DNA of 64,000 bases from a virus: IMG/VR virus record IMGVR_UViG_3300045988_122046, one strand, 5' to 3'. Shown here in pieces: positions 11,501-11,672 of this stretch. The notes beneath the pieces are model-generated. The model searched no databases and was not told the DNA's origin. It saw only the letters and a program-made list of their open reading frames with translations. The stretch's first letter is position 1. The number at the start of each line of letters is the position of its first letter. The position numbers were made by a program, and so were the translations under genes.

Positions 11501-11536
11501 GGGAAGGTTATTATATATAACCTTCCCATTTTTTTT
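11501..11536 (+). terminator. rho-independent terminator
   Basis: gggaaggttat-tatat-ataaccttccc + T8. Confidence 0.6.
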
Positions 11537-11640
11537 GTACCCATATGGCCTTTAGCAGAACTTCCGGCCGGCGACAAACCTGGACTCCGTAATCTCAAAA
11601 TCCAAAAGGCATTTACTATTTTTCAAAGCAAAATATCCTA
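11527..11640 (+). repeat. GC-rich intergenic element, copy 1 (terminator-element-promoter module)
   Basis: GTACCCATATGG..TAGCAG..CTTCCGGCCGGCG..CCGTAATC..TTTTTCAAAGCAAAATATCC; homologous to 58929-59034 and, more loosely, to 33235-33326. Confidence 0.5.
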
Positions 11641-11643
11641 TAT

Positions 11644-11672
11644 TTGTTTTTTTATAAAAAATATTATATAAT
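11644..11672 (+). promoter_or_regulatory. conserved phage promoter
   Basis: TTGTTT 11644-11649, TATAAT 11667-11672. Confidence 0.5.

Follow-up and report, generated by a model that had tools for sequence, protein, structure and literature searches.

The window analysed here is a 64-kb stretch of viral DNA (64,000 nucleotides of IMG/VR record IMGVR_UViG_3300045988_122046) with a GC content of 32%, in which all credible genes lie on the + strand. It contains six tRNA genes, and its other genes include those for a Ro60/TROVE-like protein, a PARG/macro-domain protein, PhoH, a RecJ-like exonuclease and a Dda-like helicase. The Ro60/TROVE-like gene (8498–10021; DUF2828, DUF7788 and VWA; PHROG 850, 'RNA-binding protein') lies beside the cluster of tRNA genes, behind a leader of 250 nt (8242–8497). 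We observed no DNA similarity between the window and GenBank phages in either near or distant search modes. The RecJ-like protein is ~35% identical in amino acid sequence to its closest counterparts, which are in Enterococcus, Bacillus (SPbeta) and other Herelleviridae-type phages; this protein places the phage and its relatives near the Herelleviridae. The phage is of a large, Firmicutes-type gut kind with a low-GC host, and a scan of a genome collection for the host gave no useful match. Its close relatives are IMG/VR contigs of 120–196 kb with 93–100% amino acid identity in three flanking query proteins, and its distant relatives (36–46% amino acid identity) come from the same data sets.

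Three intergenic regions of the window, at 11501–11672 (c1), 33205–33355 (c2) and 58897–59063 (c3), had been proposed in an earlier note on this DNA to share one build. In each of them we found a predicted intrinsic terminator, followed by a GC-rich core, then by an A/T-tract tail and lastly by a promoter of the sigma-70 type (Table 1); the modules thus exist where the note had put them. Terminator-like hairpins with 12–13 bp stems and an adjoining T-run lie at 11499–11529, 33203–33230 and 58898–58924. The motif said to follow the terminator is exact, as TTTTTGT(A/G)CC, at 11532, 33230 and 58924, and a fourth exact copy lies at 7612, where tRNA-Lys starts; short motifs alone, with mismatches allowed, were not enriched over chance. 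The GC content of 40-nt windows in the cores reaches 57–65%, against 32% for the window, and the A/T-tract tail runs into a −35/−10 promoter with a −10 end falling exactly where the note had put it. The gene directly downstream of c1 (11706–12515) encodes a microbial PARG/macro-domain protein, which may counter ADP-ribosylation-based defence.

Table 1. Positions of the four modules and a candidate stub within the 64-kb window.
Feature	Position	Strand	Basis or remark
c1 predicted intrinsic terminator of upstream gene; 13-bp stem, 5-nt loop, T8	11499–11537	+	terminator scan
c1 GC-rich core; boxes GTACCCATATG, TAGCAG, CTTCCGGCCG, CCGTAATC	11538–11615		homologous to c3, c4
c1 A/T-tract tail TATTTTTCAAAGCAAAAT and variable 8–10 nt spacer ahead of −35	11616–11643		
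c1 early promoter, sigma-70-type, TTGTTT-17-TATAAT	11644–11672	+	family D1, at least 18 window copies
c2 predicted intrinsic terminator; 12-bp stem, T8	33203–33234	+	
c2 GC-rich core, different sequence type; nearest relative L384	33235–33298		no significant similarity to c1, c3 or c4
c2 A/T-tract tail AATTTTTTTTAGCAAAATGTCC	33299–33326		
c2 promoter TTGATT-17-TATAAT, TG extension	33327–33355	+	
c3 predicted intrinsic terminator, after RecJ-like gene	58898–58928	+	
c3 GC-rich core, c1 homologue	58929–59005		alignment, diversity
c3 A/T-tract tail TAGAAATTTTTCACCAAAAATGCC	59006–59034		
c3 promoter TTGATT-17-TATAAT	59035–59063	+	
c4: T-run, CTCATATG, CGCGCCGG, CCGCAAAC, then tail TTTTAGAATTTTTTAGACAAAAAG	3454–3577		homologue of c1/c3
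c4 promoter TTGATT-17-TATAAT	3578–3606	+	
Possible degenerate stub: T-run, AACCGTAAC, TAAAATTTTAAGAA, then −35 of the 37671 promoter copy	37640–37672		read from sequence

The outer parts of the module are not peculiar to it. Its terminators are ordinary, and in relatives the stem of the c1 terminator is invariant and its loop variable. All four modules carry a strong sigma-70-like early promoter (TTGTTT or TTGATT-17-TATAAT), but this promoter, which had been counted as a part of the module, is generic: its 50-nt consensus TTGATTTTTTATAAAAAATATTATATAATATATATAGAAAGTTAAGGA occurs in at least 18 copies in the window, mostly right against a terminator. At some junctions TTGATTTTTT serves as U-tract and −35 at once. 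Compact terminator–promoter fusions of this sort lie at 24598–24650, 27689–27735 and 16109–16150, where TTGATTTTTT supplies the upstream U-tract together with the next −35 and its spacer. A promoter of this phage can do without the core, because most of them work with a terminator abutting the −35 hexamer.

To assess homology we scored local alignments against dinucleotide shuffles. The alignment of c1 with c3 gave z = 10.1, and a fourth region, at 3454–3585 (c4), aligned with both c1 and c3 at z = 8.2, making it a true homologue of a module that had been called triplicated. By contrast, c2 aligned with c1 at z = 2.7, through the tail alone, and with c3 at z = 0.5, indicating that c2 has the same build with another core. 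The likeness claimed for the three regions thus applies to all of them as regards build, whereas at the level of sequence it applies to c1 and c3 and, in c2, to the tail only. Likewise, the blocks attributed to copies 1 and 2 (TAGCAG, CTTCCGGC and CCGTAATC) are common to c1 and c3, and none of them occurs in c2. Our search of the window for more copies returned c4 as one true homologue and one possible stub, with CCGTA at 37652 (Table 1). The c4 element lies in the tRNA and non-coding region of the window, has no canonical G+C hairpin but only an A/T-rich hairpin upstream, and has an orthologue in the relative L310.

Comparison with related phages, which the earlier note had called for, yielded orthologues with cores that are conserved within a type and differ strongly between types. 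Nearly all close relatives carry orthologues of c1, c2 and c3. In phages with a neighbouring protein 41–46% identical to that of c2, the orthologous position was found in three states: with one core type ('d'), with another ('e'), or with none, the last having a different upstream gene and a terminator abutting the promoter. Further types (L012, L320, L362, L384, L411/L431, L414, L424, L440 and L546) were added by profile searches and two pattern scans; three other scans of sequence collections relied on overly loose patterns and gave mainly chance matches. Altogether, related viral and metagenome contigs hold about 15 sequence types of the same build, namely a hairpin with T-run, 45–90 nt of GC-richer DNA, the tail, 8–11 nt, and TTGATTTT with the promoter. 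The hairpin and T-run are absent or atypical in c4, L320 and L424.

The part of the module that recurs most closely between types is the tail, with the motif GCCnnTAGnAA|TTTTT(T)-N2-5-(C)CAAAA(A) ending 8–11 bp ahead of the −35 hexamer; an A/T tract of the form A3T5-N3-5-A4-5 (A3T5-N-A5) is present in every type. We aligned 14 elements on the A|T junction of the tail. Sharing was complete at A−1 (14/14) and nearly so at A−2 (13/14), and further upstream it involved A−5 (10/14), T−6 (9/14), C−9, C−10 and G−11 (9/14 each) and a C at −31 (10/14), indicating that conservation peaks beside the promoter and fades upstream. Short boxes stand at fixed distances from the tail: CCGTA, CGGCCG and GCCnnTAG. 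By hand count, CCGTA in c1, c3, d, L411/L431 and L414 begins 31–32 nt ahead of the junction, a place at which c4 and e have CCGC, and CCRTA-like boxes are recurrent at a fixed distance from the tail. CGGCCG, found in 5 of 13 types, lies in exact form or as a one-base variant 34 nt upstream in d, L411 and L384, at 35 nt in L414, and with two changes in L362; in the long elements c1, c3 and L320 it or such a variant is at 54 nt, and in c4 at about 53 nt. Palindromic 6-mers are mildly enriched in the cores (18, against 10.6 +/- 3.3 expected), and 4-mers are not. Autocorrelation showed no 21–22 nt repeat periodicity inside the cores, the sole peak (z = 3.4) being at 19 nt.

Using 8–11 close relatives per locus, we next set diversity in the cores against that of the flanking genes at their third codon positions. 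Segregating sites numbered 10/78 in the c1 core, 7/64 in c2 and 6/77 in c3, as against 102/269, 94/280 and 138/398 at the respective third codon positions; pooled, this is 23/219 versus 334/947 (Fisher p = 2e-14). Nucleotide diversity was 0.044 in the c1 core, compared with 0.152 at third positions of the next gene, 0.024 in c2 (third positions, 0.10–0.115) and 0.016 in c3 (0.084–0.113). The promoters were less variable than the cores, with 2/109 segregating sites (p = 0.004 versus cores) and a pi of 0.007 for the c1 promoter. The 10-nt c1 spacer ATATCCTATA before the −35 hexamer varies as third codon positions do and serves as an internal neutral control. The low diversity of the cores therefore reflects purifying selection of intermediate strength, which argues against the core being merely a neutral duplicated spacer. 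The earlier note had linked such a spacer to a lack of covariation and of conservation in relatives; we found covariation to be absent and conservation to be present.

The loci at which related phages differ reveal how the module is exchanged. L254 has replacements of all three of upstream gene, terminator and core, and regains homology at the −35 hexamer. L250 has another upstream gene with the terminator and core kept, and its homology begins just ahead of the terminator. Loci of the L267 and L269 types differ in upstream gene, terminator and core together. In L273 a d-type core and tail lie at another site, the break falls immediately behind the tail, and the two persist with no obvious promoter downstream. 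Terminator, core and tail therefore behave as a unit, and exchanges are located at the edges of this unit or in the promoter.

Cassettes of a related kind are known as PeSLs (promoter-early stem-loops) from T4-type phages, where they combine a terminating stem-loop with an AT-rich stretch and an early promoter and mediate modular shuffling (Arbiol et al., 2010, PMC2839356; Comeau et al., 2014, PMC4122927). The elements described here resemble PeSLs in their stem-loop terminator, in the AT-rich stretch upstream of the −35 hexamer and in their strong host-sigma early promoter; they also resemble them in being repeated many times in the genome and in being sited at breakpoints of insertion, deletion or replacement between related phages. 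They differ in that the stem-loop of T4-type PeSLs directly adjoins the AT-rich region and promoter, whereas here a GC-rich spacer of 45–90 bp intervenes, and in that this phage is Herelleviridae-like, with a low-GC host, rather than T4-type. The conserved GC-rich spacer lies outside the PeSL description. Compared with known elements, the spacer showed no match and no RNA fold.

The reading that we favour, tentatively, is that the module is a PeSL-like boundary cassette with an extra spacer acting at the level of DNA, perhaps by docking a regulator or as an upstream promoter region. RNA polymerase arriving from the upstream gene would be stopped by the hairpin and U-tract. The 45–90 bp of G+C-richer spacer, with the boxes GTACCCATATG, CGGCCG and CCGTAA/CCGTAG fixed in register to the promoter, would then form an extended upstream promoter region, and not an RNA gene, and would lead through the conserved A/T-tract motif into a standard early promoter for host sigma. 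The module would mark the boundary between two early transcription units; the most likely role of the spacer would be to dock a DNA-binding regulator, encoded by phage or host, and so to mark off a subset of early promoters, and the whole cassette would offer a homology patch for exchanging neighbouring genes between related phages. On this reading the constraint on the core would stem from protein binding or promoter modulation. An operator set or a recombination target, both among the candidates of the earlier note, is compatible with the register-fixed boxes, the purifying selection and the breaks at cassette edges. The docking-platform reading has points against it: types may have such short boxes in common through descent rather than selection, the cores diverge from type to type but are constrained inside each type, unlike what a single shared binding protein would leave, and the cores lack periodicity at 21–22 nt. 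Further points against it are that most promoters of the phage work without a spacer, that the A/T tract is shifted upstream relative to the E. coli UP-element register, and that core and tail persist in L273 with no obvious promoter behind them.

A bolder reading, which we consider possible but doubtful, is that terminator, core and tail form a discrete functional module, moving as a unit, with a type-specific recognition platform as its core. This platform could be read as DNA, by regulators that the phage encodes and that time a subset of early promoters, or as read-through RNA, in the manner of a factor-dependent fail-safe terminator. In either case the large phages of low-GC hosts would have a class of boundary element not described before.

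Two known DNA-level systems offer partial parallels to the favoured boundary cassette. UP elements, which the polymerase alpha-CTD contacts, and similar A-tracts lie ahead of strong promoters in bacteria and phages, such as E. coli rrnB P1 and promoters of B. subtilis sigma-A. Like them, the tract of the tail lies just upstream of the −35 hexamer, and it is the best-conserved part of the module across types; however, its centre is shifted ~5 bp upstream relative to the E. coli consensus register, the c3 tracts lying at about −62 to −46 from the inferred start where UP elements occupy −40 to −60. Stoperators are 13–14 bp sites of mycobacteriophages that are nearly identical in sequence and are bound by a known repressor. 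The modules resemble stoperators in having several copies per genome, in short intergenic gaps and in one orientation to transcription, but they are 45–90 bp long and diverse.

The core could instead be a hitch-hiker, that is, old duplicated or recombined DNA without function inside a cassette that is copied again and again by recombination between promoters and terminators, which are numerous and identical. We regard this as unlikely. It would accommodate the lack of structure, known motif or ORF in the core, the almost complete divergence of types except beside the promoter, the restriction of c2–c1 likeness to the tail, the many promoters that have no core, and the mosaic breakpoints at cassette edges. 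However, core diversity is 4–6 times below that of third positions at three independent loci (p = 2e-14), while the adjacent 10-nt spacer of c1 is at the neutral level. Moreover, neutral GC-rich DNA would decay fast in a genome of 32% GC, and the build is kept between phages with neighbouring proteins only 41–46% identical.

A distinctly unlikely explanation is that the core acts as a fail-safe terminator. Transcripts reading through the hairpin would expose rut-like RNA with an excess of C over G, Rho would load, and the T-run of the tail would serve for pausing and release, so that upstream transcription never enters the next unit. A rut site is an unstructured RNA of at least 60 nt that is rich in C and poor in G. 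The core resembles one in lying downstream of a gene end, in having more C than G on the transcribed strand, in lacking stable structure and in being followed by a T-run, which every core has; that terminator, core and tail travel together in the swaps of L250 and L273 also fits. Over 15 cores, C exceeds G on the + strand (242 versus 193, p = 0.02), but this bias is weak, and in 4 of the 15 (c3, L012, L424 and L546) C does not exceed G. Similarly, one test gave c1 and c3 slightly poorer folds than their shuffles, but the trend is not general, and folding z averages 0 across the 15 cores. Finally, a rut site depends on composition, and neither sequence-specific boxes nor conservation within a type, both seen here, would be expected of one.

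A second promoter in the core, for a phage-encoded or alternative sigma factor, is an improbable reading. CCGTA(A/G) would be its −35-like box and (C/T)nTAGnAAT its −10-like box, ~22 bp apart from start to start, and it would stand in tandem upstream of the early promoter to give a second expression window. The spacing of the boxes is fixed in d, L362, L414, L431, c1, c3 and c4. SPO1 late promoters have the −35 box CGTTAGA, which CCGTAG loosely resembles. Nevertheless, the bipartite CCGTA...TAGnAAT was absent upstream of other genes in the 64-kb window and in 3.9 Mb of loci, no sigma factor was found among 20 window proteins scanned, and the −10-like box does not suit sigma-A rules.

Very improbable is an RNA gene or its relic, whether for a small or cis-regulatory RNA or as the remains of a tRNA gene. 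What invites this idea is that tRNA-Ile, tRNA-Lys and tRNA-Cys sit in the same slot as the cores, after a hairpin/T-run or gene end and before a promoter, that c2 opens with TTTTTTGTGCCAG exactly like tRNA-Lys, and that a weak promoter-like site on the reverse strand lies beside c1. Since the core lies between terminator and promoter, it would be transcribed only by read-through or from an unrecognised antisense promoter. Rfam searches gave nothing for the elements, neither in a scan of the whole window at the gathering threshold nor in one of the four copies on both strands at E up to 10, the best score being 24 bits against a gathering score of 97. RNAalifold found 0 consensus pairs on the + or − strand in an alignment of 27 family sequences, and folding of 15 cores compared with shuffles gave a mean z of +0.07 (+ strand) and −0.39 (− strand). 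Orthologues differ by scattered single substitutions, among which no compensatory pair occurs. ARAGORN detected no tRNA at any element in the window and 35 related loci, and alignment of the cores with the six phage tRNAs gave z within +/−2.4, no better than shuffles. The proposal of a small structured RNA is thus already largely refuted, with Rfam, RNAalifold and shuffle folding all ruling against it, and a tRNA relic was rejected in spite of the tRNA-like slot, with ARAGORN, the Rfam tRNA model and direct alignment all negative. Annotation as an RNA gene is not warranted and should not be applied to the element.

Other candidates for the core were also set aside. No core contains a conserved ORF: c1 and c4 have short ATG frames, but neither c3 nor the orthologues of c1 keep them intact, the c1 frame having ATT for ATG in L250 and CAA for TAA in most orthologues. 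Likenesses seen by eye to CodY, cre, sigma-54 and DnaA boxes, to the phiKMV nick-site consensus, to CRISPR-repeat-like segments and to a Ro/Y-RNA helix were dropped as unsupported. In an antisense comparison the c4 core had a sole candidate target in the window: positions 3518–3536 are complementary at 18 of 19 positions to the mRNA of a DnaE-like ORF at 62663–62681, in the GRGS motif (E = 0.004). This match is probably due to chance, because it is weakened, not preserved, in L310.

Insertion of the core by a transposase or homing endonuclease, which would make it a mobile element or homing target and which the earlier note had entertained as a relic of a mobile insertion, is extremely improbable: there are multiple copies per genome and several homing-endonuclease-like genes in the window, but we found no terminal inverted repeats (the only true inverted repeats being the terminator hairpins), no target-site duplications, and no clean empty site among relatives, that is, none lacking the core only, and the ~4 copies in 64 kb each lie at the same kind of junction.

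If the spacer of the favoured boundary cassette is a regulator platform, or if it is a second-line terminator, it would show how early promoters that are otherwise identical are insulated and given different timing in large phages of low-GC hosts, and would add a component to the terminator–promoter cassettes that are credited with gene shuffling in big phages. As a mere hitch-hiker it would still mark recombination junctions and be useful for tracing mosaicism in uncultured gut phages. The practical consequence is small either way.

The window has several further features. The stretch at ~7535–7616 directly abuts tRNA-Lys (7617–7690) on its upstream side and combines a promoter-like site with a mini-ORF of five codons (ATGATTATTATGCCTTGA), which has a Shine-Dalgarno sequence, and with a GGGG...CCCC hairpin that carries T6, a layout like that of a transcription attenuator before a tRNA gene. 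A copy of a T-arm and acceptor (1555–1587) lies right after tRNA-Gln, and D-arm-like and T-arm-like pieces (540–700) lie upstream of the gene at 737–1465. In a GC-rich non-coding stretch (3071–3200), two hairpins of GGCTTCGG (UUCG loop) occur together with a T-arm-like GGTTCGACTCC; this stretch is without a match in Rfam and may represent an intron part or a structured RNA not yet described. The GC-rich, structured-looking gaps at 39465–39610, 40355–40503 and 62848–63056 could likewise be intron parts. Several homing-endonuclease-like ORFs (GIY-YIG with NUMOD3) and zinc-finger-like gene segments that are repeated make up a further group, at 63057–63842, at 39817, 48040 and 50319, and at 13206–13686 and 21835–21940. 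Lastly, TTGCGG occurs 39 times on the + strand and its complement CCGCAA, which is also present in several cores, 35 times, ~8 times the expectation from composition and in all three codon frames, and TGCGGCA is strand-biased (21 versus 5); this pattern suggests a word read at the level of DNA, such as a Chi-like or recognition site.
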